A stretch of DNA of 64,000 nt from Myxococcales bacterium (lineage in GTDB: Bacteria > Myxococcota_A > Polyangia > Polyangiales > DASUME01), in NCBI GenBank assembly GCA_047601445.1, contig JASGJH010000001.1, positions 5,664,001 through 5,728,000 of the forward strand. Direction: 5' to 3'. This document shows positions 14,699 to 49,449 of the stretch, piece by piece. Numbering within the stretch: position 1 is the stretch's first letter; every line of letters starts with the position of its first letter. Below the pieces are notes generated by a model. That model saw only the letters and a program-made list of their open reading frames with translations, ran no database searches and had not been told where the DNA came from. The position numbers and the translations under genes are program-made.

Positions 14699-16240
14699 TC
14701 AGTCGCCGCAGGTGGGGCTGCGATAGATCGTGGCGACGTCACTGGCCGACAACGTCGCGCCGAACAGCACCACATCGTCGAGCAGCCCATGGAAAGGAAA
14801 GCTCGGACTCTCCGAGGTTACGTTGCCGAGCTGCAGCTGACTCACGTCGATGGCCTGGGCGCTCGTCACTACCACGTGATTCCAATCGCTCCCCAGCGTG
14901 GCGCCAGGTACGCCGTTCACGTACGTGATGGCGCCGGGCCAGTTGCTTGCAGCCATGCCGAGCTGGGTATCCACGAACTCGACCTTCGCGCTGGCGTTAA
15001 GGTTGAGGATGTTGCGGGGATTCTGGTAGTCCGAGTACTTGATCTGCACCGTCAGATAATCCACCGAGGCCGCCAGACCCAAGAGGCCGCTCAAGCGCAC
15101 GCGTACGCGGAAATTCGCGTCGCTGAAGTCCGAACGTTGCCAGCTGCGTCCCCACAGCTGAGCGACTCCTCCATAGGTGCTCAAGTTGTTGGAGCCCACG
15201 ATGGCCGTGCCGCCGTAGCCCGCGCTCGTGTGGCTCGAGCCGCCGTCCCACGAGAGCTCCACGCCGAGCCCCTGGATCACGCCGAAGGTCGACGACTTGA
15301 TGATCACCGTGACGCCGAGGATGGACACGCCCTGCGGGATCGCACTGTCCAGGTGGAAGCCACCCCAGTGCTCATTCTTGCTGCCAAGCAGCGTGAGGTT
15401 GGCGGTCGCGCTGCCGCCGCCATCTGCATAGGCATTTTGGGGCGACGACCAGTCATTGTTGGGACCGTAGGAGCTCGGAAACACCGCGGGTGTGAGGTTC
15501 GTGATCGCCGTGCCCGAGCTCGGCTTGGCCCAGAATGAGAGGCCCTTGATGGCGCTGCCGGCCGCTCCAACCTGCACGTAGTCATCGACTCCGTCGAAGC
15601 TGAGCGCGCCGTCGACGTGTCCCTGCGTCCAGGGCGTGCCCGTGACGTTGGTCAGGGTTCCATTGGGCGCCTGCCCGGTCGCCTCACTCGCTACGTTGCC
15701 GGAGGTCTCATCGAGCATCCAGTGCGCGGCACGCACGGGCGGTGGCGTCACGTTGCAGCCGCAGGCATCCGCCACGGCGCGCAGCGGATCGAGCGGGCAA
15801 GCATCGACATCATCGGCGCTTCCGTCGCCATCGTCGTCGTCGTCGCACACGTCGCCAAAGCCATCGCCGTCGAAGTCCTTTTGATCGACGTTGGCCAGGG
15901 CGAGGCAGTTGTCTGCCGAATCACAGAGACCATCGCCGTCCATGTCGCTGCAGCCCACGGCCGCGTCCGACCCGGGATTCGCGATAGGTCCCGCATCGCC
16001 GCCGCCACCCGTCCCGGGATTCGCAGCGGGCCCTGCGTCTCCATCGCCACCGAGCATGTCGTCGGGAAGCGCGCCGGCGTCGCTACCCGGCAGTGAGCCC
16101 GGCGTTGCGGCATCTTGCCCACCGTCTGCCACCTGAACGGGCAAGTCGAGCAACTTGAGACCGAGCCGGCCGCAGCCTGCCGTGGGCAGGGCGACCAGAG
16201 CTAACGATAGCCCCAAGATCGACCGCAAACTCCGTGACAC
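14699..16240 (-). CDS. Lipoprotein with TSP3-like Ca-binding repeats and a LamG-like domain split by an insert
   Basis: Lipobox TAGC-GRLG; DMDGDGLCD.ADNC..N.DQ.D.DGDG.GD.CD; AHW.LDE.SG, ALSFDGVDDYV, WNHV, F.G.LDDV. The start is uncertain (ORF extends to 16276). Confidence 0.8.
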   Translation of the reverse strand: MSRSLRSILGLSLALVALPTAGCGRLGLKLLDLPVQVADGGQDAATPGSLPGSDAGALPDDMLGGDGDAGPAANPGTGGGGDAGPIANPGSDAAVGCSDMDGDGLCDSADNCLALANVDQKDFDGDGFGDVCDDDDDGDGSADDVDACPLDPLRAVADACGCNVTPPPVRAAHWMLDETSGNVASEATGQAPNGTLTNVTGTPWTQGHVDGALSFDGVDDYVQVGAAGSAIKGLSFWAKPSSGTAITNLTPAVFPSSYGPNNDWSSPQNAYADGGGSATANLTLLGSKNEHWGGFHLDSAIPQGVSILGVTVIIKSSTFGVIQGLGVELSWDGGSSHTSAGYGGTAIVGSNNLSTYGGVAQLWGRSWQRSDFSDANFRVRVRLSGLLGLAASVDYLTVQIKYSDYQNPRNILNLNASAKVEFVDTQLGMAASNWPGAITYVNGVPGATLGSDWNHVVVTSAQAIDVSQLQLGNVTSESPSFPFHGLLDDVVLFGATLSASDVATIYRSPTCGD

Positions 16241-16308
16241 CAACTCAGATCGTAAGTGGCTTCCTGTCGGCCCCACTCCACGAATCGGCTAATACCAACC
16301 ACATTTGG

Positions 16309-16341
16309 GGGAGCAGGTAGGTTTGCACGCAAGATCGCGCA
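16309..16341 (-). promoter_or_regulatory. Conserved upstream motif shared with 17736-17768
   Basis: GGGAGCAGGTAGGTTTGCACGCAAGATCGCGCA vs GGGAGCAGGTAGGATTGCACGCAAGATCACGCA, upstream of both LamG paralogs. Confidence 0.55.
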
Positions 16342-16387: not shown

Positions 16388-17665
16388 TCAGAGGCCGCAC
16401 TCCGGACTCTGTGCGAGCACTTGAGCCTGGGTCGCCGTAAGCGTCTCCGCGAAGAACATCACATCGTCCAGGGTGCCCTGAAAGGCCGTCCCGGCCGCCT
16501 CGCTCTTCACGTCACCGAGCTGCAGCTGGGTCACGCCGAGCGCCTGACTGCTCGTGATGAGCACGTGGTTCCAGTCCGCGCCGAGCCGCGCGCCCGCCAC
16601 ACCGTTCACGTAGGTCATGGCACCCGGCCAGTTGGTGGCCGAGATCGCCCCTGCCGCGTCGGCGAACTCCACCTTCGCGCCATCGCTGAGGTTGAGGACG
16701 TTGCGCGGATTCTGCGCGTTCGTGTACGCGAGCTGCACGGTGATGTAGTCGATGGATGCCGCCAGACTCACCAGGCCCCCGAGCACGACGCGCACGCGAA
16801 AGTTCGCGTCGGTGAAGTCCTGGGCCTGCCAACTACGACCCCACAGTTGATCCGGCCCACCATAGCTACTCAGGTTGTTCGAACCGACCAGTGCCGCACC
16901 ACCGTAGCGCGCGTCCGTCTGCGTGTTCCCCGCGTCCCAGGAGAGCTCCACGCCGAGCCCCTGAACCACGCCGAAAGTGGCCGATTTGATGGTGACCGTG
17001 ATGCCCACGACCACCGCCCCCGCCGGCAGCTGCGCCGGCAGATGAAAGCCGCCCCAGTGCTGCTCGCGGCTGCCGATCAAGTTCAGGTTGGCCGTGGCGT
17101 TGCCGTTGCCCTCGGTGAACGCCTTCTCGGGCGTGTCCCAGTCCTCCTTCGGGCCGGTGCTGCTCGGAAAGACCGCACCGGTCGCGCCCTCGCTGGCCAC
17201 CAGGCTCCCGGGCCTGGCCCAGAAGGCCAGGGTCTTCACGGGCGCCGCCAGGGCCCCAACCTGCACATAGTCATCGACGCCGTCGAAGCTCAACGCGCCA
17301 CCCACTTGTCCGCCTACCCAGGCAGGCATGGCCGCAAAGTTGGTGAGCACGCCAGCCGGCGCGCTGCCGGTCGCTTCCGCCGCGCTGGTGCCCGCGGTCT
17401 CGTCGAGCTTCCAGTGAGCCGCGGGTAGCGGGGGCGGCACCACGTCCGGCTGGTCCAACAGACAAGAACCTGCGTCGGTGTCGACCCCTGCGTCCCCGTT
17501 GCTTCCGGCTCCCCCGTCCGGCTGGAGCAGCCAGCCCGCGTCTGCGTCCGCCGACGCACCGGCCCCCTTGTTCAACAGCTTGAGGCCGACGCGACCGCAC
17601 CCCTGGAGCGCTGGCAGCGACACGCAAAGCCACGCGACGAAACCGAAACGACCCCAAGAAAACAC
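16388..17665 (-). CDS. LamG-like lipoprotein, tandem paralog of 14699-16240
   Basis: Lipobox LQGC-GRVG; near-identical blocks such as ALSFDGVDDYVQVGA, HWGGFHL, GLGVELSWD, QLWGRSWQ. The start is uncertain (ORF extends to 17701). Confidence 0.8.
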   Translation of the reverse strand: MFSWGRFGFVAWLCVSLPALQGCGRVGLKLLNKGAGASADADAGWLLQPDGGAGSNGDAGVDTDAGSCLLDQPDVVPPPLPAAHWKLDETAGTSAAEATGSAPAGVLTNFAAMPAWVGGQVGGALSFDGVDDYVQVGALAAPVKTLAFWARPGSLVASEGATGAVFPSSTGPKEDWDTPEKAFTEGNGNATANLNLIGSREQHWGGFHLPAQLPAGAVVVGITVTIKSATFGVVQGLGVELSWDAGNTQTDARYGGAALVGSNNLSSYGGPDQLWGRSWQAQDFTDANFRVRVVLGGLVSLAASIDYITVQLAYTNAQNPRNVLNLSDGAKVEFADAAGAISATNWPGAMTYVNGVAGARLGADWNHVLITSSQALGVTQLQLGDVKSEAAGTAFQGTLDDVMFFAETLTATQAQVLAQSPECGL

Positions 17666-17735
17666 TGCAGGAACGATCGTAAGTCGGCGCCTCCCCGACA
17701 CGCGCCAACAATCCGATCACGACTGCCACAATTGA

Positions 17736-17768
17736 GGGAGCAGGTAGGATTGCACGCAAGATCACGCA
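17736..17768 (-). promoter_or_regulatory. Conserved upstream motif shared with 16309-16341
   Basis: 31 of 33 positions identical to the motif upstream of the paralog. Confidence 0.55.
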
Positions 17769-18237: not shown

Positions 18238-19367
18238 ATGGCTGCGTGTTTTGAAACCGAATGCGAGGACGTACGACCCGAAGTCGTGCGGACCTTTTCG
18301 CCTGGAACCAGGCTTGGCCCCGATCTCACGATCATCGGAATCCTTGGCGAAGGAGGCACGGCCATCGTCTACAGCGCTCACCATCGAGTGCTCGAACGGG
18401 AAGTGGCCGTCAAGGTCTCCGTGGGGGACGAGTGCGGGCCGCAAAGTCGCCTCGTGCGTGAGGCAAAAATGTGCGCATCCGTTCGCGATGCCCACATTCC
18501 TCGCGTGTACGGGCTCGACTACCTGGAAGACGGCAGCCCCTACATGATCATGGAGAAGGTCGAAGGCGAGATGCTCACCAAGCTCCTCCAGCATCGACGC
18601 CTCGCGGTGCGCGAAGCCTGCGAGTTCGCCTGTGAACTGCTCGAGACCTTGGACGCCATCCACTTTGCGGGGCTGCTCCACCGCGACGTCAAGCCCAGCA
18701 ACCTGATGGTCGATCCCAACCCCGAAGCGCTCGTGCGCCTGCGCCTGCTCGACTTCGGCGTGGGAAGATCCTGCGCACCGAAGAGAGCCAGCTCCCGCAG
18801 CTGACCCGCAAAGGCGAGCTGCTCGGCACGCCCCTCTACATGGCGCCCGAGCAAGTCCTCACCATGCCCGTGGACGAACGCGCCGACATCTACGCAGCCG
18901 GCGTGGTGCTCTACGAGATGCTCGCCGGTCGCACGCCCTTCCACGGTGAAAGCATCGGCGAAGTCTTCGCGGCGGTCCTGCGCGACGAGGTCCCACCCTT
19001 GCGCAGCATTCGCCCCGAACTCCCGGCGTCACTCGAGCACCTGGTGCACCGCGCCATGGCTCGCCAACCCGAGGCGCGCTTCCAGACCGCATACACCATG
19101 CGCGCAGCCCTCTTGAGCGCGATCCAGGAACTCGTCGCGCTGGGGCCCGTGCCCGCCCTCGAAGCCCTCGAGACGCCAAGGGAAGGCGTGTACGAAGCTC
19201 ACCTCGAGACCGTGGAGACCCATTTCGAGGTGCTCACCGCCGAACTCGAGGAGGTCGACCTCGACCTCGAGGCCGAGGAGTGGTTCGCCCTGGAGTACAC
19301 CGAACGCTCGAGCGGTGAGCGCGTCAAGGGCACGCCTGCTCGCGCGCTCGCTGCGCGCTCCAAATGA
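18238..19367 (+). CDS. Cytoplasmic Ser/Thr protein kinase, split by a 1-nt frameshift near 18763-18767
   Basis: First frame has GEGG, VAVK, HRDVKPSN, DFG; second frame continues ILRTEE..LTRKGELLGTPLYMAPEQ, DIYAAG. One added base before ATC at 18768 fuses them. Confidence 0.85.
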
Positions 19368-19385
19368 GCGCTCTGGCGACGGCAA

Positions 19386-19742
19386 GCCTCCGCGCCCATA
19401 CGAAGCCCGTGCGCACACGGGTTCTCCCTTCTGCGCGCGGTCGCCTCCGCGCCCATACGAAGCCCGTGCGCACACGGGTTCTCCCTTCTGCGCGCGGTCG
19501 CCATCGGCTGCGATCCACGGTTGTACGTCATGGGGTCGCTTAGGGCGGTGGGGCCGCGAACTCGCTCCTTGAGTGCACCCGAGTTTCGCTCAGACAGCGC
19601 GGCTCATGGGGCGGCTGACTTGGTGGTACTTCTGTTCTGCGATTTACCCCGGGGGCGTGCCATGCGCGCAGAAGGGAGAACCCGTGTGCGCACAGGCTTC
19701 CCCTGGGTGCTCGGTGTGCTCTAGCTCGGGTGAACTCGAGTG
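19386..19742 (-). repeat. Structured repeat element copy A (direct repeat with 20565-20919)
   Basis: Two 57-bp tandem units; 37-bp inverted arms 19459-19495 and 19664-19700 around a ~168-nt core; CTCGAG-containing flank. Confidence 0.9.
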
Positions 19743-19841
19743 GGCCCTTTGGGTGCACTCGGGTGCTCGGTGTGCTCTAGCTCGGATGCTCTCGAGTGTG
19801 ACCCATCCGAATCGCTCGAGTGTGCTCTGGGTTTCCCGGAT

Positions 19842-20480
19842 TCACTCGAGGGGGCTCGGGGCGCTCGCGTGGGCTTGTTTGAGGTCTTGCTCGAGTTCAC
19901 TCGACCGGTGGGCATTTTCGGTGGAGTCAGGGTCCGTGCTCCTCGGATCGGCGCTGACCGCCATGAAGACGATCGCGAAGAACAGCGAGAAGACCAGGAG
20001 CAACCGCGTCCACCAGATCGCTTCGTTGATGGAGCGAAACTTCGCGACCGCGATGCTGCTCAGTGTGTGGGTATGCTTCGCGTAGTGACCGACGATCTCG
20101 GACTCGCCCAGGCCCTGCAGGTCGCGCATCAATGCTTCTTCGCTCATCAAGGCCGTGTCAGGGAACGACGCGAGCGATTTGGAGGCGAGCGTGGCGCGCG
20201 CGGTCAGGGCGACCAGCGCGAGATGTGCGATCCACACGAAGCTCAAGATGGCGGGCGTGGCGGCGGCCGTGAGCAAGACCTTGTAGGACGTGCCGATCGA
20301 AGTCGTAAGCGCCGCGTTGGCAGCTGCGACGATGACTCCGACCACCGTCGTTGCGAAGGCGAGCACAGCAGCGGCCTTGGTATCTGCAAACTTGATGTAG
20401 TCGCTCGCATAGTCGCGATTGCTTCGAGCAAACTCAATGCGGAGATCAGACAAGGTGTCCTCGCATGCTGGCTTGGCCAT
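19842..20480 (-). CDS. Pycsar effector (PycTM/DUF5706)-like membrane protein, no adjacent cyclase
   Basis: YIKFADTKAAAVLAF followed by two TM helices, SLASF.D, LS.IA.AKFRSINEAI and a third TM helix, the pattern of this family. Confidence 0.7.
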   Translation of the reverse strand: MAKPACEDTLSDLRIEFARSNRDYASDYIKFADTKAAAVLAFATTVVGVIVAAANAALTTSIGTSYKVLLTAAATPAILSFVWIAHLALVALTARATLASKSLASFPDTALMSEEALMRDLQGLGESEIVGHYAKHTHTLSSIAVAKFRSINEAIWWTRLLLVFSLFFAIVFMAVSADPRSTDPDSTENAHRSSELEQDLKQAHASAPSPLE

Positions 20481-20564
20481 GTTCTAGCCCACTTGACGCT
20501 GCGATCCGAGCTTTCGACCGGCGGACCGAGAGTGTTGGCAAAATGCCACTAAAACGCCTCCTCC

Positions 20565-20919
20565 GCCTCCGCGCCCATGCGAAGCCCGTGCGCACACGGG
20601 TTCTCCCCTCTGCGCGCGGTCGCCTCCGCGCCCATGCGAAGCCCGTGCGCACACGGGTTCTCCCCTCTGCGCGCGGTCGCCATCGGCTGCGATCCACGGT
20701 TGTACGTCATGGGGTCGCTTAGGGCGGTGGGGCCGCGAACTCGCTCCTTGAGTGCACCCGAGTTTCGCTCAGACAGCGCGGCTCATGGGGCGGCTGACTT
20801 GGTGGTACTTCTGTTCTGCGATCTACCCGGGGCGTGCCATGCGCGCAGAAGGGAGAACCCGTGTGCGCACGGGCTTCCCCTGGGTGCTCGGGGTGCTCTA
20901 GCTCGGGTGAACTCGAGTG
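20565..20919 (-). repeat. Structured repeat element copy B
   Basis: Near-identical to 19386-19742; inverted arms 20638-20674 and 20841-20877. Confidence 0.9.
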
Positions 20920-21039
20920 AGGGGGTGAGCTCTCAAAGCGCAACCCGTGTGCGCCCACGAGTTCACTCGAGCAGGGGCCCGACTCGAGCACACCAGGCTG
21001 AGTACACGCGTTCCCACATGAGCACGAGAACACACGAGC

Positions 21040-21339
21040 ACGAGGGCTCGCGGCGCGCACTCGGGTAGCCCGCTGGTGAGGGCAAGGGGCTTCCCTCTGC
21101 GCGCATGGCACGCCCCCGGCTGAAGCGCAGAGCAGAAGTACAACGTCCGCAGCGGCCTCATGAGCCGCGCTGTCTGAGCGAAACTCGAGTCCACCCGAGG
21201 AGCGAGTTCGCGGCCCCACTGCCACAAGCGATCTCGTGACGTACAACCGTGGATCGCAGCCCATGGCGACCGCGCGCAGAGGGAAGCCCCTTGCCCTCAC
21301 CGGCGGGCTTTCGGTGTGGGGCGCGCCGCGAGCCCTCGT
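21040..21339 (+). repeat. Structured repeat element copy C (inverted relative to A/B, different terminal stem)
   Basis: Same core (ATGGCACGCCCC...TGTCTGAGCGAAACTC...GGAGCGAGTTCGCGGCCC...GGATC..AGCCCATGGCGACC); arms 21067-21104/21272-21309 plus an outer perfect 19-bp pair 21040-21058/21321-21339. Confidence 0.88.
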
Positions 21340-21346
21340 ACGAGTG

Positions 21347-22957
21347 TTACTTGGGCGCCTTGCCCAGGCGCGTGAGACGGGCTTCGTCGGCCAGGTACTG
21401 CTCGTAGTTCATGTTGAGGTCGTAGTACTTCTCGCCCGCGAGCTCGATCACGCGGGTAACCAGCGAGTCGACGAACTGCACGTCGTGGGAGCTCACCATC
21501 ATGCTGCCGGTGAACTTGAGCAGGCCGTTGTTGAGCGAGGTGATCGACTCGAGGTCGAGGTGGTTGGTGGGGCCGTCGAGCAAGAGCACGTTGGGGTCTT
21601 GCAACATCATGCGGGAGACCATGCAGCGCACCTTCTCACCGCCCGAGAGTACGTTCGCGCTCTTCTTGCTTTCCTCGCCCGTGAACAACATGCGGCCCAG
21701 GAACCCGCGCACGAAGGTTTCTTCTTGGTTGGGGCTGTACTGCCGCATCCAGTCGATGAGGTTCGAGCTGGTCTTGAAGAATTCGTTGTAGTCCTTGGGG
21801 AAGTAGCCGAGGTTCACGGAACGGCCCCAGCGCAGCTCGCCCTCATCGGGCTTCACCTCGCCCGCCAGCACCTGGAGCAGCGTGGTGGTAGCGAGGTCAC
21901 TGCCGGCCACCGCCACACGCTCTCCCTTGGAGAGGGAGAAGCGCATGTTCTTGAACAGCGTGACGCCGTCGATGGACTTGCTGATGCCGTCGACGAACAG
22001 CACTTCCTTGCCCAGCTCACGCTGCGTATCGAACACGATGTACGGATACTTGCGCGACGAAGGCTTGATGTCGTCGAGCGTGATCTTGTCGAGCAGAGCC
22101 TTGCGCGAGGTGGCCTGCTTGCTCTTGGAGGCGTTGGCGCTGAAGCGCTGGATGAAGGTCTTGAGCTCCTTCATCTTGTCTTCCTTGCGCTTGTTGGATT
22201 CCTGGCGCTGCCGCAATGCAAGCTGACTGGTTTCGTACCAGAAGCCGTAGTTGCCGGTGAACAGCGTGACCTTCTGGAAGTCCACATCGGCGATGTGCGT
22301 GCAGACCTTGTCCAGGAAGTGGCGGTCGTGAGAGACCACGATCACGGTGTTCTTGAACTCGAGCAGGAAGTTCTCGAGCCACAGGATGGAGTCGACGTCC
22401 AAGTGGTTGGTAGGCTCGTCGAGCAGGAGGATGTCGGGCTCTCCGAACAGCGCCTGCGCCAGTAGCACGCGCACCTTCTCGCTGTCCTCGAGGTCCTTCA
22501 TCAGGCGCTTGTGCTTGTCCTCGTGGATGCCAAGGCCGCTCAGCAGGCTCGCCGCGTTGGACTCCGCGTTCCAACCGTCGAGCTCGCCGAACTCCCCCTC
22601 GAGCTCCGCAGCGCGCGCGCCGTCCTCGTCGCTGAAGTCGGCCTTGGCGTAGAGCGCGTCCTTTTCGGCCATCACCTTGTGCAGCTGGGAGTGGCCCATG
22701 ATCACGGTGGTGAGCGCGTCCGCCTCGTCGTACGCGAAGTGGTCCTGCTTGAGCACGCTCAGGCGCATGTTCTTGGGGATGACCACCCTTCCCTGGGAGG
22801 GATCTTGGTCGCCCGACAGGCACTTGAGGAACGTGGACTTGCCCGCTCCGTTGGCCCCGATCAACCCGTAGCAGTTGCCGGGGGTGAACTTGATGTCGAC
22901 GTTCTCGAACAGCGCACGGCTGCCGAACGACAGCGACAAACCTTCTGTGGAAATCAT
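21347..22957 (-). CDS. ABC-F family ATPase (YbiT/YkpA-like ribosome-associated factor)
   Basis: Two NBDs and no TM; GANGAGKST, LDEPTNHLD, SHDRHFLD, linker FIQRFSANASKSKQATSRK, LSGGEK. Confidence 0.92.
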   Translation of the reverse strand: MISTEGLSLSFGSRALFENVDIKFTPGNCYGLIGANGAGKSTFLKCLSGDQDPSQGRVVIPKNMRLSVLKQDHFAYDEADALTTVIMGHSQLHKVMAEKDALYAKADFSDEDGARAAELEGEFGELDGWNAESNAASLLSGLGIHEDKHKRLMKDLEDSEKVRVLLAQALFGEPDILLLDEPTNHLDVDSILWLENFLLEFKNTVIVVSHDRHFLDKVCTHIADVDFQKVTLFTGNYGFWYETSQLALRQRQESNKRKEDKMKELKTFIQRFSANASKSKQATSRKALLDKITLDDIKPSSRKYPYIVFDTQRELGKEVLFVDGISKSIDGVTLFKNMRFSLSKGERVAVAGSDLATTTLLQVLAGEVKPDEGELRWGRSVNLGYFPKDYNEFFKTSSNLIDWMRQYSPNQEETFVRGFLGRMLFTGEESKKSANVLSGGEKVRCMVSRMMLQDPNVLLLDGPTNHLDLESITSLNNGLLKFTGSMMVSSHDVQFVDSLVTRVIELAGEKYYDLNMNYEQYLADEARLTRLGKAPK

Positions 22958-23200
22958 GGCTTCGATGGCTCCAGGCGTGCCTCCCGTACTGGCTCTCGTG
23001 CATCAAGGCAAACCGAACTTGAGCCTCCCGTGCTTTCTCGCGCGCTGACGGGCCTTTTTCGGCGCGCTCGCGCGGGCACTTTCGCGCGCTGGGATGCGCT
23101 CCGTGCCCTGAATGGGCTGAGTTTCTAGCGTCCCGAGACTCGTGGCTACCTCGGTGATCCTGGGTGCCCCAAGGGCCCCGCAAAACGCAGGGGGAACGCC

Positions 23201-24085
23201 ATGGCTCGTACGATCGCTGCCTCGCAGCACCCGTCGCATCGCCCAGTGCGTGCGGCCACCACCACACTCTCGCTGCTCACGCTATTCGGCGCCGGCTGCG
23301 CCAAGAATACGCCCCAGCATCAACAGCCCATCACCGAGAACCTGGCGCCCGCCGTGGCCAGCCCCGCTACCGAAGCCATCTCGATGCCGGACCGCGACTC
23401 CACCGGGTACTACTCCAACGTGGCCGACGCCAAGGAGATGGGGGTGACGGCCCCAATGGAAGAGCCGGGGACGCCGGAATACGACGAGAACGAGGCTGCA
23501 CAGCCCAAGCCCCGCGTGATCGTCCACGAGTTCGTGCCGAAGGTCACCCGCGTGATGGTGCCCACCATCACCACCATGCCTGCAACGGTCACGGAGACGC
23601 CCGTGGCGGCGACGGGGCTCACCGATGGCCAAATCGTGCGCGTCGCACAGACCATGCAAGACGCGGAACTCGCCCAGGCCAGCATCGTGGCCGAACGCGC
23701 GCAGAGCGACCGCGTGAAGAAGTTCGCGGCCCAGCTGCAGTCCGAGAACAAGAACTTGAAGGATCGGACCCAGGCGCTGGCCAAGAGCGACAAGCTGACG
23801 CCCGTCGAGAGCACGCTCTCGGCCGACATGCGTGTCAAGGCCAGCCAGGAGCTCACCAGCGTGGAGCTGGCCAAGCCCGAAGAATTCGACAGGGCCTTCA
23901 TCGACGCGCAGGTGGAGCAGAACCAGCAGCTGTTGGAACTCCTGGACAACCGCCTGATCCCGGACGCCAGTGAACCGAAGCTGAAGGCCACACTGAGCAA
24001 GTCGCGCTCGGTGCTCGAGCGTCAGGGGGAAGAGGCCAAGGAGATCCAGCGCGTGATGCAGAACGCGCCCGAGAGTACCCCCTGA
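23201..24085 (+). CDS. DUF4142 domain lipoprotein
   Basis: Lipobox GAGC; LTDGQI...E...A..A...VKKFA..L, FDRAFIDAQV..L.L.LDNRLIP.A. Confidence 0.75.
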   Translation: MARTIAASQHPSHRPVRAATTTLSLLTLFGAGCAKNTPQHQQPITENLAPAVASPATEAISMPDRDSTGYYSNVADAKEMGVTAPMEEPGTPEYDENEAAQPKPRVIVHEFVPKVTRVMVPTITTMPATVTETPVAATGLTDGQIVRVAQTMQDAELAQASIVAERAQSDRVKKFAAQLQSENKNLKDRTQALAKSDKLTPVESTLSADMRVKASQELTSVELAKPEEFDRAFIDAQVEQNQQLLELLDNRLIPDASEPKLKATLSKSRSVLERQGEEAKEIQRVMQNAPESTP

Positions 24086-24144
24086 GGCGGCGCACCTGAC
24101 CACGCCCCGATCACGGTAGATCGCAACAAGGAGCGACCGAACGC

Positions 24145-25425
24145 ATGGACTTCTCCGGCGCTGCCCACAGTTCGCTGACGCCGCTCGCGATCATTCTCGC
24201 CCTGATGCTACTGCTGCCGAGGTTGTTCGAGTACCTGAAGTTGCCGGGCATGCTCGGACTGATCGCGGGAGGCGTGCTGCTCGGCCCCCATGGCTCCGGT
24301 TTGCTCGGCGCGGAACATCCCTCGATCGACGTCTTGTCCGAGATCGGCAAGCTCATGATCATGTTCTTCGCCGGTCTCGAGATCGATCTGGCGAAGTTCC
24401 GAGAGGTCAAGTACCGCTCGCTTGCGTTTGGCCTTACGACATTTGCGGTTCCACTGGTGCTCGGCGTGATCATCGGGCGCTACTTCCACTACGGCTGGCC
24501 GGCTAGCTTCTTGATCGGCTCGCTGATGAGCTCGCACACGTTGCTGGCCCTGCCGCTGCTCCAACAGATGGGCCTGATGCGCAACAGCGCCGTGACCATC
24601 ACGGTGGGCGCCACCGTGTTCACGGACGTGCTCTCGCTGGTGGTGCTGGCGATGTGCCTGTCCATCCACACCCAGGGCTTTTCCCCCAGCGTTCTCACGC
24701 GCGACTTGGTCGAGCTCGCCATCTACATTCCGTTGCTGGTGGCGGGCGTGGGGCGTGCGATGCGCTGGGTCCTGCACCGGCTCGGTGACTCCGAACTGAC
24801 CCGCTCCTACGTGTTGCTGCTGACGTTGATCCTGGCCGCGCTGGGAGCGGAGTTGATCGACCTCGAAGGGCTGGTCGGCGCGTTCTTGGCGGGCTTGTCC
24901 GTGAACGCGGCCATGCAGGGGCGCTCGGTGCACACGCACCTGGAGTCGGTGGGGCACCTGCTGTTCATCCCGGCCTTCTTTCTCACCACGGGCCTGTTGA
25001 TCGACTTCGGAGCCTTCGGTCGCGTGCTGAGCGAGAGTCCGTTGCTGGTGGTCGGCATCGTGGCGGGCTTGGTGTTCTCCAAGTGGCTCGCCGCCGAGAT
25101 CGCGGGCCGCGCGATGCGCTTCGACGGCTCGACGGTTCGACTGATGTGGTCCCTCACTTTGCCCCAGGTCGCAGCCACGCTTGCTGCCACCATCGCCGGC
25201 TATCAGGCGCTCGATGCCAGGGGTGAGCGCTTGTTGGACGCGTCGGTCCTCAACAGCGTGCTGGTCCTGATGGCCGTGACCGCGGGGCTTGGCCCCGTCC
25301 TGACGGCTCGCTTCGGCCGGGAGGTCCTCGCCAACGGAGGGGGCGTCGCACCGAGCCCGGTGGGCGCGCCGGCGCTGCCGGAGCCGTCGAGCGCGCCGGG
25401 AGGCTTGCGCCCGCTGCCACGGTGA
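24145..25425 (+). CDS. Cation:proton antiporter (CPA2 family)
   Basis: Many TM helices; G.LLGP.G, FFAGLEID, SSHTLLA.P, GAFLAGL, PQVAATLAA. Confidence 0.88.
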   Translation: MDFSGAAHSSLTPLAIILALMLLLPRLFEYLKLPGMLGLIAGGVLLGPHGSGLLGAEHPSIDVLSEIGKLMIMFFAGLEIDLAKFREVKYRSLAFGLTTFAVPLVLGVIIGRYFHYGWPASFLIGSLMSSHTLLALPLLQQMGLMRNSAVTITVGATVFTDVLSLVVLAMCLSIHTQGFSPSVLTRDLVELAIYIPLLVAGVGRAMRWVLHRLGDSELTRSYVLLLTLILAALGAELIDLEGLVGAFLAGLSVNAAMQGRSVHTHLESVGHLLFIPAFFLTTGLLIDFGAFGRVLSESPLLVVGIVAGLVFSKWLAAEIAGRAMRFDGSTVRLMWSLTLPQVAATLAATIAGYQALDARGERLLDASVLNSVLVLMAVTAGLGPVLTARFGREVLANGGGVAPSPVGAPALPEPSSAPGGLRPLPR

Positions 25426-25531
25426 CGCTTGTAACGGGCCGTTAACAGGTTCCGACAGGGGCTGGGTTAGCTGCGCGCAGGCGCACACCTGGCTCCTGCT
25501 TACCCAAGGCCTTCGGCACCGCGAGGAATCC

Positions 25532-26041
25532 ATGTCTCTCCATCTCGTTACCGCGCCCCAGTTCTCGAACATGCTCGGCAACCTCGACCGCTGGCTCGAC
25601 AAAGCCGTCGAGTACGCGGCCTCGCGCTCCTTCGACGCAAACGTGCTCCTCCAGGCACGCCTGGCTCCGGACCAGTTTCCGCTGCTGAGGCAAATTCAGG
25701 TCGCCTGCGACACCGCCAAGATCTCCGCTTCCCTGGCCACGGGAAAGACGCCGCCCAAGCACCCTGACACCGAGCAGACCGTCGCCGAGCTCAAGGCCCG
25801 CATCGCGTCGGTGCGCGCTTACCTCGACGAGTTCACGGCCGCCGACTTCGAGGGCGCCGAAGGACGCGTGCTGAGCCCGCCTGCGCTCCAAGGCCGCTCC
25901 GCCAAGGCCGTAGACTACGTGGCTGCCTTCTCGCTGCCCAACTTCTACTTCCACGTATCCATGGCCTACGCGATCCTGCGCCACAACGGCGTGCCGCTCG
26001 GCAAGAAGGACTACATCGGCCGCGTGAAGTTGATCGACTAA
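25532..26041 (+). CDS. DUF1993 family protein
   Basis: ARLAPDQFPL..QIQ.ACD.AK and PNFYFH.SMAYAILRHNGV.LGK.DYIG. Confidence 0.9.
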   Translation: MSLHLVTAPQFSNMLGNLDRWLDKAVEYAASRSFDANVLLQARLAPDQFPLLRQIQVACDTAKISASLATGKTPPKHPDTEQTVAELKARIASVRAYLDEFTAADFEGAEGRVLSPPALQGRSAKAVDYVAAFSLPNFYFHVSMAYAILRHNGVPLGKKDYIGRVKLID

Positions 26042-26123
26042 CTCTCTCCCTGGCTCGCGTGCGCCCGAAGGAGCCCTAGCGGGAGCAATCTCGACTAAAG
26101 TTTCTTTCGCGGGTGCAGGCTCC

Positions 26124-26648
26124 CTAGGAGCCATCCGAAGCGCTTCCCATTTGCTCTGCGAGCCACCTCAGCTCTTCCACCATCTCAGGGTGGTCAGCGA
26201 TGACGCGTTCATTTTCGTGGCGATGGTTCAAGCCATAGCGCTCGTGAAGCTCGGTATCCTTGATGCCAATGAGCGCCTCGGCGACTCGGGGAACTGCGTC
26301 CCGCCGGAGCTCTCTTAGCGCCGAAACCAAGGCCGCAGCGGCCGTACTGGTCTCGGAAACGACCATTTCTTCGAATGCCTCTAGAGAACCGTCGGCGGCG
26401 GGTGCGATGAGGACATCGTAGACATCATCAGCGCTGCACGCGATGACCTGCGGATCGCCTTCAAGTGCAACCTTCGCCTTGGCCAGTAGCTCGTGAAGAA
26501 ATGCTGCAGGTTCTCCGCCAACCGCTCGTGTGTAGATCGAGCAAACGCGTTCTGCACAACGAAGTGCAAACCCAAGCACGGCGGGCAGGGGTGCGCGCTT
26601 CGCCCACGCATCAATTACCCTAAGTTGCTCTAGCGGTTGCACGAACAA
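26124..26648 (-). CDS. Hypothetical helical protein, DUF416/immunity-like
   Basis: FALRCAERV..IY N-terminal motif and HPEMVEEL.W C-terminus; visibly more AT-rich than its neighbours. Confidence 0.5.
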   Translation of the reverse strand: MFVQPLEQLRVIDAWAKRAPLPAVLGFALRCAERVCSIYTRAVGGEPAAFLHELLAKAKVALEGDPQVIACSADDVYDVLIAPAADGSLEAFEEMVVSETSTAAAALVSALRELRRDAVPRVAEALIGIKDTELHERYGLNHRHENERVIADHPEMVEELRWLAEQMGSASDGS

Positions 26649-26704
26649 TCTCCGATCTACGGCGTTCTCGCGCGGCGCCGGGGCGCTCGAATGGGCTCGG
26701 GCAG

Positions 26705-27286
26705 TCAGGGGCTCTGGAGGGTTAGTGTGTCTGCGTCGAGTGCGTCATCCGTGAACGAGGCGCTCGCGTACTCGGTCGTGAGGCTCGAGAGGTAGGCCTG
26801 ATTCTTTTCGTTTTCTCCGTAGGCGAGGCGGATCTCGTCGTACGAGGAGACGCGACCTTTCACCTTCACATCGACGAGCACGACACGGTCTGCGTCCACG
26901 TCGCGCAACGAGAGCGTGCCCAGGACGGCCATTTCGTATTCGGTGGCGCACGCTGAGGCGCCCTTGAAGAAGGTACGGGTGCCACAGGCGGAGGCGCGGT
27001 TGCCCGTCCAGCCGCGCATCCAGCTCGCGCGCGCGTCCTGCTCTTCCGTCGCGGCCTCCAGCATCAGGCTCACCTCGTAATGGTGGCGATCGTTCGTCAC
27101 GAACGACCAGGTACCCCGCTCGTTCACCTCGGCGATCTTCGACAGCAGCTCCATCTCGACCTTGCGCGTGTCCACGTCGTTGTCTTCGCTCGTGGCCTCG
27201 CAGCCAGTGAGGTAGCCGGGATTCACGACGAACATCACGGAGAACACCGTGACGCGAAACAGCCACTTCAAGGATTGCTGGAGCAT
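26705..27286 (-). CDS. Hypothetical exported protein/lipoprotein
   Basis: Hydrophobic N-terminus ending VNPGYLTGC; ACG.RTF...A.AC motif; GC3-rich codons. Confidence 0.65.
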   Translation of the reverse strand: MLQQSLKWLFRVTVFSVMFVVNPGYLTGCEATSEDNDVDTRKVEMELLSKIAEVNERGTWSFVTNDRHHYEVSLMLEAATEEQDARASWMRGWTGNRASACGTRTFFKGASACATEYEMAVLGTLSLRDVDADRVVLVDVKVKGRVSSYDEIRLAYGENEKNQAYLSSLTTEYASASFTDDALDADTLTLQSP

Positions 27287-27497
27287 GACTTCTCGCAGGT
27301 AAGGGGAGACCCGGATTGTACACGGAGCGCCCTTTCAACGAGGGAACGAAAAGATCCCCGCCCAGGGTGATCCCCGCAAGCCTCACACCACCCGAGGGCA
27401 CGAGATTCCCGGGCAAAAGCGAAGCGAACACGAGGGCTACTCCGGGTCCGCCAAGAAACCACTCGAGAAACCTCGAGCAAACACCGAGCGAACACAT

Positions 27498-27776
27498 GGC
27501 TCTCGTGAATTCCCACGTGTGAACCCCAGCGGGAGCAAGAACTCCCCTTCAGCGCGCATGGCACGCCCCGCGTAAAGCAAAGAACGGACGTGCGACCAAG
27601 TCAGCCCCCATGAGCCGCGTTGTCTGAGCGAAACTCAAGTGCGCTCAAGGAGCGAGTTCGCGGCCCACCGGGACAAGCGATCGATCGACGTACGACGGTG
27701 GATCAAAGCCCATGGCGACCGCGCGCTGAAGGGGAGTTCTTGCTCCCGCTGGAGCTCCTTCGAGTACACGAGGGCC
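27498..27776 (+). repeat. Structured repeat element copy D (third terminal-stem variant)
   Basis: Perfect 32-bp arms 27526-27557/27721-27752 around the shared core; outer 10-bp pair 27498-27507/27767-27776. Confidence 0.88.
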
Positions 27777-27988: not shown

Positions 27989-28522
27989 ATGCGAGCTCAC
28001 TATCTGCGCTCTTGTTTGGTCGTAGCTCTCGGGGTCGGCGTCGGCGCTGTAGCGGCCTGCGGTAGCGACAACAACGAAACCTACAACGATGCTGGCGCTG
28101 GTGACGGCGATGGCGATGGTGACGGTGATGGTGATGGCGACGCCGGGGGCGGCGATGGCGACGCCGGGGGCGGCGTCATCCCGACCCTCAACGGCTGCGC
28201 GCCCAGTGACTACAAGGATGAGACTGCATCCTCGTCCGATCGCGTGGTCACGATCGCACCCGGGGGCAAGCTCGAGTACTCGCCCAAGTGCATGACCATC
28301 AAGGTCGGCCAGAAGGTGAAGTGGGAGGGCGATCTCTCGAAGCATCCGCTCGACCACGGAAGCCCCACCAACGAGGACCTCGGCAGCCCCAATTCGCCAA
28401 TCAAGGAAACCAAGAGCGGCGACAGCGTGGAGTTCACCTTCTCGGCGCCCGGCACCTATCCCTACTACTGCGAGGTGCACGGCACGCTCGGCATGGTGGG
28501 TAGCATTCACGTCGAAGAGTAA
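27989..28522 (+). CDS. Plastocyanin/cupredoxin-domain lipoprotein
   Basis: RBS GAGGAGG; lipobox VAAC; (GD)n linker; type-1 Cu ligands HPL...YYCEVHGTLGMVG. Confidence 0.88.
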   Translation: MRAHYLRSCLVVALGVGVGAVAACGSDNNETYNDAGAGDGDGDGDGDGDGDAGGGDGDAGGGVIPTLNGCAPSDYKDETASSSDRVVTIAPGGKLEYSPKCMTIKVGQKVKWEGDLSKHPLDHGSPTNEDLGSPNSPIKETKSGDSVEFTFSAPGTYPYYCEVHGTLGMVGSIHVEE

Positions 28523-28528
28523 GAGCTT

Positions 28529-28595
28529 CGGGGAGGTCGCGTGACCTCCCAGCTAAAACACCGCGACGGGCGGGGAGGTCGCGTGACCTCCCCGC
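28529..28595. repeat. Two REP-like palindromes GGGGAGGTC-GCGT-GACCTCCC between convergent genes
   Basis: Copies at 28529-28550 and 28570-28595, each followed by TAAA(A)CACCGCG. Confidence 0.8.
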
Positions 28596-29191
28596 TAAAC
28601 ACCGCGCATTTGGAACGTGTAGCGCGTGACCAGGCGCGCGTCGGAGTGCCGCTGCAGGAGCTCCGATCGCACATCGCAGTCGATGCCGAGCTCATCCCGG
28701 ATTCCCTCGAAGAAGGGGTGCAGCGTGGGCCACGTCAGCTGGTCCACCAGTCCAAGGCTTTCCGCCGCGCGATAGTAACGGTCCACGCCGCTCAAGCGCA
28801 CGCTGCATAGCCGTTCGTCGTAGTGCTCCACGTGGAACACGTATTCGGGGCTCGCGTTGTAGATGGCTGAGATGAGCAAGGCCACCAGGTCGCGCACGTC
28901 GCCATGGAAGATGGGCGTGCTCGCGTGCTGCGCGCGTGTGGCGCGTGTCTTGGCTCGGCCCAAGCGATAGAACAGCGCGCGCGAGGCGCGGTCCACGGCA
29001 TGGGCACCCATTTGCTCGGACATCACTTGCAGCAGCAGTCCGTAGAACAACGAGGTCACCTTGGAGAGGTCCGTGGCGAGCTCTCCAGGATCGGCCGGGA
29101 AGAATGCGCCCATCAGCAAGCGTGCGTCTTGCCCTGGATGAAAGTGGTCCTCGGAGCGCATGGACTGGGCGAACGCGAGATCGGCACTCAT
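28595..29191 (-). CDS. Hypothetical protein, possibly V4R/H-NOX-like ligand-binding fold
   Basis: ATGA overlap with the upstream peptidase; helical LFY.LG..K segment followed by a beta-rich C-terminus. The fold is an inference. Confidence 0.6.
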   Translation of the reverse strand: MSADLAFAQSMRSEDHFHPGQDARLLMGAFFPADPGELATDLSKVTSLFYGLLLQVMSEQMGAHAVDRASRALFYRLGRAKTRATRAQHASTPIFHGDVRDLVALLISAIYNASPEYVFHVEHYDERLCSVRLSGVDRYYRAAESLGLVDQLTWPTLHPFFEGIRDELGIDCDVRSELLQRHSDARLVTRYTFQMRGV

Positions 29192-48367: not shown

Positions 48368-48456
48368 CGAACCTCCGCACCGAACCACCCGCGCGAGCGC
48401 ATCCTTGCACGGGAGTTTGCCCGCGCCCATGCTCCCTGGGCCGTACGATTGGAGAG

Positions 48457-48878
48457 AAGCGAGCCACTTCGTGAGAGAAGCGAACCTCGCGGAGGGGTGG
48501 GTCCCAGCGCGGCTTTGCCGGGCTGGGCGGGGAGGTCCCGTGACCTCCCCGTATAAAGGACACAAGCGAGCCACTTCGTGAGAGAAGCGAACCTCGCGGA
48601 GGGGTGGGTCCCAGCGCGGCTTTGCCGGGCTGGGCGGGGAGGTCGCGTGACCTCCCCGTTCAAAGGACACAAGCGAGCCACTTCGTGAGAGAAGCGAACC
48701 TCGCGGAGGGGTGGGTCCCAGCGCGGCTTTGCCGGGCTGGGCGGGGAGGTCGCGTGACCTCCCCGTTCAAAGGACACAAGCGAGCCACTTCGTGAGAGAA
48801 GCGAACCTCGCGGAGGGGTGGGTCCCAGCGCGGCTTTGCCGGGCTGGGCGGGGAGGTCGCGTGACCTCCCCGTATAAA
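48457..48878. repeat. Tandem array of four 107-bp multi-hairpin units (BIME/REP-like)
   Basis: Units start at 48457, 48564, 48671 and 48778; each contains CCCAGCGCGGC-TTT-GCCGGGCTGGG and CGGGGAGGTC-GCGT-GACCTCCCCG. Confidence 0.95.
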
Positions 48879-48894
48879 AGATGAGGAGGGGAAT

Positions 48895-49449
48895 ATGGGA
48901 ATCTTCGGATTGGGGCTCGTGGCAGCGGGGGCGGGGGTTGCCTTTATGGCCTCGCGCAAACCCGACAACTTCAGCATCTCACGGCGCGCCTTGCTCAAGG
49001 CCTCGCCCGAGGCGCTGTTTCCGTTGGTCAACGACTTCCACCGCTGGACCACCTGGTCCCCCTGGGAGAAGTTCGACCCGAACCTCCAGCGCACCTATGC
49101 GGGGCCCGAGCTGGGCGTGGGTGCTTCCTATGAGTGGTCGGGCAACAACCAGGCTGGCTCCGGCAAGATGACCATCCAGGAGAGCACGCCCAACCAGCGC
49201 ATCATCATCGAGCTCGTGTTCACCAAGCCCATGGCCGCCACCAACCGCACCGAGTTCCTCTTCACGCCCAAAGACGGCGGCACCGAAGTGAGCTGGACCA
49301 TGAGCGGCACCAACAGCTTCGTGAAGAAGCTGTTCCTGGTGTTCATCGACATGGAGAAGTTCGTGGGCCCGCAATTCGAAGAGGGGCTGAAGAGCCTCGA
49401 GCGCGTGGCGAGTGGTGGCGGGGAGAAGCAGTTGAGCTCGGAGGTCTAG
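48895..49449 (+). CDS. SRPBCC (polyketide cyclase/START-like) protein
   Basis: F.ISR...A.PE.LF..VNDF..W..WSPW..DP, G.GA.YEW.GN..G.G.M, FEEGL..L. Confidence 0.9.
   Translation: MGIFGLGLVAAGAGVAFMASRKPDNFSISRRALLKASPEALFPLVNDFHRWTTWSPWEKFDPNLQRTYAGPELGVGASYEWSGNNQAGSGKMTIQESTPNQRIIIELVFTKPMAATNRTEFLFTPKDGGTEVSWTMSGTNSFVKKLFLVFIDMEKFVGPQFEEGLKSLERVASGGGEKQLSSEV

Follow-up and report, generated by a model that had tools for sequence, protein, structure and literature searches.

Structured repeats in the window

The stretch analysed here (the window) comprises 64,000 nucleotides, positions 5,664,001-5,728,000, of the genome of a Myxococcales bacterium (GenBank assembly GCA_047601445.1), a single contig of 9.5 Mb with 66% GC that is called G000 below. 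Between a Ser/Thr kinase gene and an ABC-F gene, it holds three copies (A, B and C) of a structured repeat together with one small gene, and a fourth copy (D) stands alone further on. An earlier note on this DNA described the four copies, and their coordinates and their cores of 163-168 nt were confirmed. The copies are modules of a larger, back-to-back unit, in which a CTCGAG-rich spacer separates a leftward A-type module from a rightward C-type module. The explanation put forward here is tentative and is held at somewhat less than an even chance: the unit is a selfish, gene-less element that acts as single-stranded DNA (ssDNA), and its core is a host replication signal of the primosome-assembly-site (pas) or single-strand-origin kind.

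A BLAST search of G000 with the repeat sequences, as the earlier note had proposed, identified nine full copies; in addition, half a copy lies at 310 kb and a 3' remnant, in inverted orientation, at 5.9137 Mb. In eight of the full copies, cores of 163-168 nt (168, 166, 167 and 163 nt in A, B, C and D) are closed by arms of 32-39 bp (37, 37, 37 and 32 bp, respectively) with at most one mismatch; the ninth has lost most of its 5' arm. The element also exceeds the limits first drawn for it. Outer stems lengthen the rod beyond the arms, a 57-nt duplication follows at the 3' ends of A and B, and the spacer joins the modules. Together with its outer stem, copy C folds with a z-score of -12.5 relative to 100 shuffled sequences.

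Some details of the earlier description did not hold. Each of the 11 aligned copies does keep the internal GAGCCGCG..CGCGGCC stem, apart from a single C>T change on its 5' side in D, but the first GATC of the supposedly kept GATC..GATC stem occurs in only 5 of the 11 and is absent in A and B. A bias of wobble pairs towards one strand had also been proposed. When the sense strand is defined as minus for A and B and plus for C and D, the single mismatches in the arms of A, B and C do read as G.T on that strand (3/3). However, D has two A.C mismatches just outside its 32-bp arm, other copies show T.T and G.G, and the central stem of the myxobacterial copies carries an A.C on the sense strand, that is, a G.T on the opposite one. 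The bias was therefore rejected. Single-base differences between copies are in any case subject to some doubt due to probable 1-bp indels in the assembly: the kinase gene is split into two open reading frames (ORFs), and dnaK (at about 5,913,970) has a 1-bp insertion near its 3' end compared with nine relatives, both probably assembly indels. The repeat family as a whole is independent of the G000 assembly.

Left and right halves of a divergent unit

Intact divergent pairs occur in G000 at 4.678, 5.443 and 5.685 Mb (n = 3), and a collapsed pair lies at 5.913 Mb. The A/B type is the left module and the C type the right module of one divergent unit, and D is a solitary module of a third type. 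Two copies in the relative G007 represent further arm types. Over positions 11-36 of the 3' arm, four A-type copies are 96-100% identical, and a fifth, damaged copy reaches 81-85%; among three C-type copies, identity is 85-88% over the same positions of the 3' arm and 85-96% over arm positions 11-36. Between the A and C types, arm identity falls to 54-65%, whereas the cores are 78-98% identical whatever the arm type. Within one type, the arms thus match as well as the cores or better, the damaged copy aside. The arms are markers of the left and right halves and not replacements made copy by copy. The conserved core with replaced arms, on which the earlier note had built, is real between arm types and disappears within them. 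Since A/B and C are two halves with type-conserved arms, the supposed contrast with miniature inverted-repeat transposable elements (MITEs), whose termini are conserved, mostly disappears as well. A tree of 11 cores shows no grouping by arm type, but this tree is unresolved.

The ends of the modules are fixed: A-type modules end at GGGCGCGGAGG in four loci, and C-type modules end alike in four loci. The 57-nt tandem duplication at the A-type end is present in three of five copies, with two, two and four units. Modules A and B match over the spans given in Table 1, with 98% identity along about 355 bp. Arms without a core were not found in G000, where only chance matches of 15-24 nt lie outside the known copies. 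The possibility that the arms are pre-existing palindromic insertion targets was rejected, as no empty arm palindromes occur elsewhere in G000.

Moreover, some changes are mirrored in both arms of one copy, namely an extra G/C in the A copy at 5.443 Mb and a two-base change plus an insertion in the C copy at 4.678 Mb. Such changes mean that one arm is corrected from the other or that both are held by selection. Template switching at quasi-palindromes is a known route for arm-from-arm correction. The co-conversion of arms suggested earlier is found on this small scale, although arms are not swapped from copy to copy.

Table 1 Modules, core motifs and neighbouring genes in the window
Feature	Position	Strand	Details
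Module A (left, A-type)	19386-19742	-	57-nt tandem duplication of 3' end 19386-19442; 3' arm 19459-19495; core 19496-19663; 5' arm 19664-19700; start of spacer
Core motif of A	19561-19596	-	TGTCTGAG-hairpin-CGAG(TT) within GCCGCG/CGCGGC stem
CTCGAG-rich spacer/leader repeats, inner (5') side of A	19705-19910		repeat comparison
Cargo: orphan Pycsar-type membrane effector gene	19842-20480	-	PycTM domain, residues 15-173
Module B (left, A-type), direct repeat of A (98%)	20565-20919	-	57-nt 3' duplication 20565-20621; arms 20638-20674 and 20841-20877
Core motif of B	20740-20775	-	motif pattern match
CTCGAG-rich spacer between back-to-back B and C	20890-21039		like spacers in pairs at 4.678 and 5.443 Mb
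Module C (right, C-type)	21040-21345	+	outer stem about 19 bp; arms 21068-21104 and 21272-21308, core between; end within a few bases of the ABC-F stop codon
Core motif of C	21171-21206	+	motif pattern match
Module D, solitary, third arm type	27526-27752	+	between divergent genes; arms 27526-27557 and 27721-27752
Core motif of D	27621-27656	+	motif pattern match
Flanking Ser/Thr kinase gene	18238-19367	+	two ORFs in the assembly; left boundary of insertion
Flanking ABC-F gene	21347-22957	-	right boundary of insertion

A weak inverted likeness to the 3' arm of D was seen at 26042-26088, just past the stop codon of a DUF1993 gene, and could be the remnant of a partner of D. Elsewhere in the window, two adjacent paralogous genes, one of them with a TSP_3 repeat, share 73% identical stretches (14820-15273 and 16509-16962; 16248-16341 and 17675-17768), including a 94-nt stretch near their starts.

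Insertion sites and cargo

The unit is found at the ends of convergent genes or between them, and orthologous sites in relatives lack it. For instance, the stop codons of the kinase and ABC-F genes are 23 bp apart in the relative G004 and about 1,980 bp apart in G000, where A, the gene, B, the spacer and C lie between them; of seven ABC-F loci compared in relatives, only one (G004) was syntenic, and two were viewed at the wrong end. After dnaK, G000 carries an element whose arm overlaps the stop codon, while none was found in the 68-200 bases viewed after the dnaK stop of nine relatives, G007 included. Module 3' ends generally lie about 0-20 bases from stop codons or within gene tails. No target-site duplication was seen by eye, the sole syntenic empty site being too diverged for alignment at base level, and a search for an empty site of the 5.443 Mb pair gave no ortholog. 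The distribution is patchy. The core motif was found by pattern search in 2 of 401 genomes of the order, and the element by covariance model in 2 of 10 genomes of the family; as most relatives are fragmented assemblies, the misses are weak.

The gene between A and B encodes a PycTM protein (PADLOC, E 5.5e-21), which is present in a single copy in G000, and its last 38 codons or so extend into the spacer. No cyclase gene was found between B and A. Cargo lies beside or between modules in three unrelated genomes, and no Pfam family was identified in cargo between widely spaced modules. In one locus (L176:3440-4560), two small AT-rich ORFs of 101 and 163 amino acids, one of them lipoprotein-like and neither with a Pfam family, lie within a divergent pair that directly follows polA. 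In another (L173:2280-4600), two direct module copies flank the duplicated 3' end of a GMC-oxidoreductase gene and what looks by eye like a RelE-type toxin-antitoxin pair.

Related repeats in other phyla

The core motif, the stem beneath it and the divergent layout are common to repeats in other phyla. The exact core pattern was found at 33 loci in genome_contigs and at 8 in metagenomes. According to their records, these belong to Bacteroidales, Beta- and Gammaproteobacteria, Nitrospiraceae, Omnitrophota, Saccharibacteria and Myxococcales. When the distinct pattern matches were taken blind, 13 of 29 had at least 7 of the 8 pairs under the motif; 5,000 flank swaps gave 0.48 such matches on average and never more than 4. 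In an alignment of 29 rows, which were picked by eye, all eight pairs of this stem vary on both sides, and its covariation is 0.509, against 0.144 when shuffled and at most 0.191 when slid.

A covariance model built from this alignment gave 109 matches in 20 of 121 genomes related to G402 and shrank the invariant core to TGTYTGAG-hairpin-CGAGT(T). In betaproteobacteria, 20 of the 21 neighbouring pairs less than 3 kb apart are divergent, at distances of 168-295 bp and in 11 genomes. These betaproteobacterial elements have repeated terminal hairpins and a T-rich 3' domain. The long, window-type pattern had no match in genome_contigs or viral_contigs, and a BLAST search of the core against plasmids gave one 27-nt match only. 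The betaproteobacterial T-rich 3' domain also occurs with another core and no model match in Pasteurella (L193:1130-1555, a divergent pair) and Aeromonas (L194:1340-1580). Judging from these sequences, a wider superfamily may exist beyond the model.

The motif at replication origins and the search for an enzyme

The compact motif was found at 78 viral loci in 37 distinct contexts, and the basal stem is present in 8 of 31 distinct ones. Among the other viral contexts, Vibrio filamentous phages carry the motif on the zot-coding strand in all four cases checked. At RstA loci, it lies on the viral strand at -371 to -497 in 16 of 21; four of the misses have no upstream DNA, which leaves 16 of 17 informative loci. 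It is situated there 55-60 nt 3' of a conserved origin hairpin whose loop contains GT. Furthermore, ColE1 carries GAGCGTAGCGAGT at 1332-1344, downstream of its origin, and the identical 13-mer is present in the Vibrio filamentous phage PE003B. A related sequence, GACCAAGCGAAGCG, lies in the F-G intergenic region of phiX174. Two studies describe pas sites as hairpins of ssDNA that are exposed in phiX174 and, in ColE1, downstream of the origin (PMC3167613; PMC5778457). The phage copies of the motif do form an ssDNA hairpin that is close to a replication start and on the strand displaced there; the chromosomal copies have no local origin. A cII-like gene and phrog_1524 enclose the compact motif in prophages (L227, L232, L237, L241, L242, L245 and L285) and at 35 loci that have the same flanks; AT-rich direct repeats lie next to it, and this site is possibly an origin region.

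The surroundings of the motif also bear on a rather unlikely alternative, in which the element is a REPIN- or BIME-like substrate of an HUH nuclease acting in trans (a Y1 RAYT, a Y2 of the IS91 type or a Rep_trans protein), the core motif is the binding or cleavage signal, and spread occurs by cut-and-paste of ssDNA. Inverted doublets at gene ends do resemble REPINs and BIME-1, the motif lies just 3' of a hairpin that would be the nick site of RstA, itself an HUH protein, and tandem 3' duplications and cargo would fit rolling-circle read-through. C-type 5' arms even begin with GTAG, as no other arms do, but the 3' arms do not end in CTAC. No suitable enzyme came to light. The single Y1 gene of G000 is IS200-like, unrelated and has no motif beside it; G007 has no Y1, neither genome has a Rep_trans gene, and a search for a Y2 transposase gave no match in G000, but its control was silent too. 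Neither motif nor model matched beside nine Y1 loci (G000 and G401-G404), and the model matched beside none of 30 Y2 loci (of about 100 matches). Likewise, no match lay beside the reverse transcriptases (RTs) or the six tyrosine-recombinase loci searched. Among 94 neighbouring ORFs (49 of 80 and 45 of 98 listed), no shared partner or transposase family was found, some of the ORF calls in GC-rich loci being wrong-frame shadows. The earlier note had looked to an RT, RAYT or tyrosine-recombinase gene next to a copy, and none is linked to the copies.

Two further observations concern mobile DNA in G000. An IS200-like gene and broken integrases lie in its first 100 kb (L059), where the GC content is 57% compared with 66% overall; this region may be an island or contamination. 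A second, unrelated REP-like palindrome, GGGGAGGTCNCGTGACCTCCC, occurs in the window at 28519-28599 and 48451-48985; G000 contains 70 matches to it, spread over about 53 places. At 48.5 kb, the palindrome belongs to a 107-bp tandem array. G000 has no RAYT-like Y1.

Single-stranded DNA or RNA

The element likely folds as ssDNA. With the motif masked, 15 of 18 lineages have more mini-hairpins with GNA or GNNA loops on the sense strand than on the other (p 0.0075; 43 vs 13), and the loops include GCCA, GACA and GTCA, which are not GNRA. According to one study, GCGNAGC and GCGNNAGC hairpins are far stabler in DNA than in RNA and are found at ssDNA origins (PMC13037366). DNA is preferred to RNA because these mini-hairpins favour the sense strand and include non-GNRA loops that are far stabler in DNA. 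The earlier view that one strand folds under structural selection is upheld on these grounds, namely the covariation of the stem across phyla, the strand bias of mini-hairpins in relatives and the motif on the viral strand, but not by the wobble argument. The GAGCGA on both sides of the loop would pair only through tandem sheared G.A pairs, to go by known DNA and RNA structures.

RNA as the working molecule is improbable. The modules would then be two structured RNAs transcribed outwards from the spacer, or else 3'-end stabilisers or terminators for the convergent genes that read into the unit. Copies do lie at gene 3' ends, the antisense strand, which the transcripts of the convergent genes would carry, folds better, and the betaproteobacterial rod and outer hairpin are each followed by T-tracts. 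Tandem G.A pairs are also stable in RNA. Against this stand the GNA triloops and non-GNRA GNNA loops, the motif beside the origins of ssDNA phages, and the lack of a sigma-70-like promoter in 19300-21400 and of a terminator at the module ends within the window. Rfam 15 gave no match at the gathering threshold for the window, and among 20 related loci one tRNA only, away from the element; all else was weak, of miRNA or snoRNA type and far below cut-off. Finally, a role as RNA leaves the spread of the unit unexplained.

Proposed mechanism

From the observed architecture, insertion and shared motif, we infer a mechanism with a G.A fold, a protein partner and a route of spread. Each module would fold as ssDNA around the core motif, which host replication proteins would recognise as a signal for primosome assembly or as a single-strand origin. 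The GAG and CGAG halves would pair via tandem sheared G.A pairs and close the apical hairpin, so that TGTYT and GTT would face each other in the loop that is recognised. With one module per strand, a fork or a displaced strand in either direction would expose one foldable copy. By means of this signal, the unit could be copied and spread although it has no gene of its own; indeed, spread by use of a host replication signal is likely. Replication that starts or stalls at the unit could account for the 57-nt duplications at 3' ends, for the collapse of the pair at 5.913 Mb and for the capture of a gene between A and B, and the arms would stay perfectly paired through repair of one from the other by template switching.

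Several points weigh against this explanation. No protein partner was found, and binding by PriA is an analogy. The tie between the myxobacterial and the other repeats rests on a motif of about 19 bases, the stem and the layout; the T-rich 3' domain is missing from the window copies, and the rows of the 29-row alignment, besides being chosen by eye, include kin. Inside the myxobacterial core, alignment folding shows almost no compensatory change, and standard folding favours the antisense strand. The far-flank control for mini-hairpins is also sense-leaning (22 vs 12), and the window copies are not enriched in them (0.9 on the sense and 0.6 on the antisense strand, with a background of 1.5). 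As for the phages, the 16 RstA loci are close kin and in effect one lineage, VEJphi is a true miss, and the relaxed motif pattern matches somewhere in 105 of 630 shuffled loci. If the phage motif belonged to the RstA origin itself, as it may, the reading as a substrate of an HUH nuclease would be favoured. In ColE1 and phiX174, the likeness is confined to the 3' half of the motif, without TGTYT, and the stretches concerned are presumably the pas sites.

A domesticated chromosomal element is less probable still than a working RNA. It would provide transient ssDNA gaps or restart sites near the origin, like the RRS/TRIP1 repeats of Escherichia coli, and would be kept by host selection. Its size and GC-rich fold are similar to those reported for RRS (PMC10592627). 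Furthermore, none of the five loci with full copies is more than 1.1 Mb from dnaA (post hoc p about 0.001-0.003, from few loci). RRS positions, however, are conserved across enterobacteria, while the present element occurs in few genomes of its own family and its dnaK site is empty in G007. Homology to RRS/TRIP1 was rejected, as there is no sequence or model match and RRS has no core motif; the antisense G-runs are not kept in all copies either.

The earlier suggestion of a retron-like unit, with dispersed msr-msd copies and the arms as a1/a2 repeats, can be put aside as very improbable: long closing repeats are a feature of myxobacterial retrons and RT-less copies like multicopy single-stranded DNA (msDNA) have been reported (PMC6868368), and the 32-39-bp arms resemble them, but G000 has no retron RT (its two RTs do not reach the NCBIfam retron cut-off and are both far from any copy), the inner stem end is followed by ATGG (sense) or GGTC (antisense) and has no TAGC, CAGC or GAGC branch-point context on either strand, and divergent pairs and phage-origin copies are unlike retrons. 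A 515-amino-acid RT at about 4.49 Mb of G000 (L024:1216-2763) falls below all NCBIfam cut-offs, with weak likeness to group II, Drt3a and retron St85, and is possibly an unclassified defence RT.

Bacterial genomes commonly contain small structured repeats that have no transposase, and most of these lack an explanation. In the present case, a single short motif links a myxobacterial repeat, repeats of several other phyla and the region around the origin of CTX-type ssDNA phages, and the divergent layout is conserved. An orphan hairpin repeat thereby becomes a specific hypothesis, in which a defined fold of 40-60 nt would activate PriA, serve for single-strand initiation or be nicked by an HUH enzyme. 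The motif may mark an unassigned signal in a well-studied phage origin, and the element may show a route by which single genes, such as an orphan Pycsar effector, enter chromosomes. A more general reading is doubtful but worth stating: the repeats could form a pan-bacterial class of gene-less selfish DNA, made of back-to-back ssDNA folds with the signal found beside filamentous-phage origins, copied by the host restart primosome and capturing passing genes, defence and toxin-antitoxin genes among them, on the inner side.

Comparison with known systems

No paper with the motif was found in the literature searched (subscription journals lay outside the search), and the accessible part of the supplement of PMC2267715 contains neither TGAGCGAAGCGAG nor GTTTGAGCG. 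The element was compared with known systems feature by feature. Like REPINs and BIME-1, it forms non-coding inverted doublets at gene 3' ends, with perfectly paired arms, a patchy distribution and ssDNA folding. Its units, however, are rods of 290-350 nt with a conserved inner motif, compared with REP palindromes of 20-40 nt, no RAYT is linked to them, and GTAG..CTAC ends are not shared by all types.

With MITEs and integron mobilisation units, it has in common that it is non-autonomous, has fixed ends and can flank cargo with two copies. It differs in that no target-site duplication was seen, no transposase with matching ends was found, and the most conserved part is internal and strand-specific. 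Elements of the IS91/ISCR type differ in turn, as none of the 30 Y2 loci has a model match and the two ends of the present unit are of the same kind. Retron msr-msd units and the msDNA-like repeats of Nannocystis resemble it in their long closing inverted repeats around a structured core of about 165 nt (PMC6868368), but a retron RT and a branch-point context are missing here and the modules form divergent pairs.

RRS/TRIP1 are likewise GC-rich, structured intergenic repeats, about 220 bp long and acting at the level of ssDNA, but they are positionally conserved and based on G-quadruplexes (PMC10592627). The origins of ssDNA phages resemble it in that, in CTX-type phages, 55-60 nt separate the origin hairpin from the full motif on its 3' side. 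The pas sites of ColE1 (n' pas/ssiA) and phiX174 are ssDNA hairpins with a GAG-CG-loop-CG-AGT arrangement, and ColE1 has the 13-mer in common; the present element differs from them in that it is chromosomal and multicopy, with two modules set back to back and the motif embedded in a long rod, while ColE1 and phiX174 have no TGTYT half. Overall, the element has the layout of a REPIN/BIME doublet or a MITE pair and a pas-like core, and it lacks some of the tested membership features of these systems.

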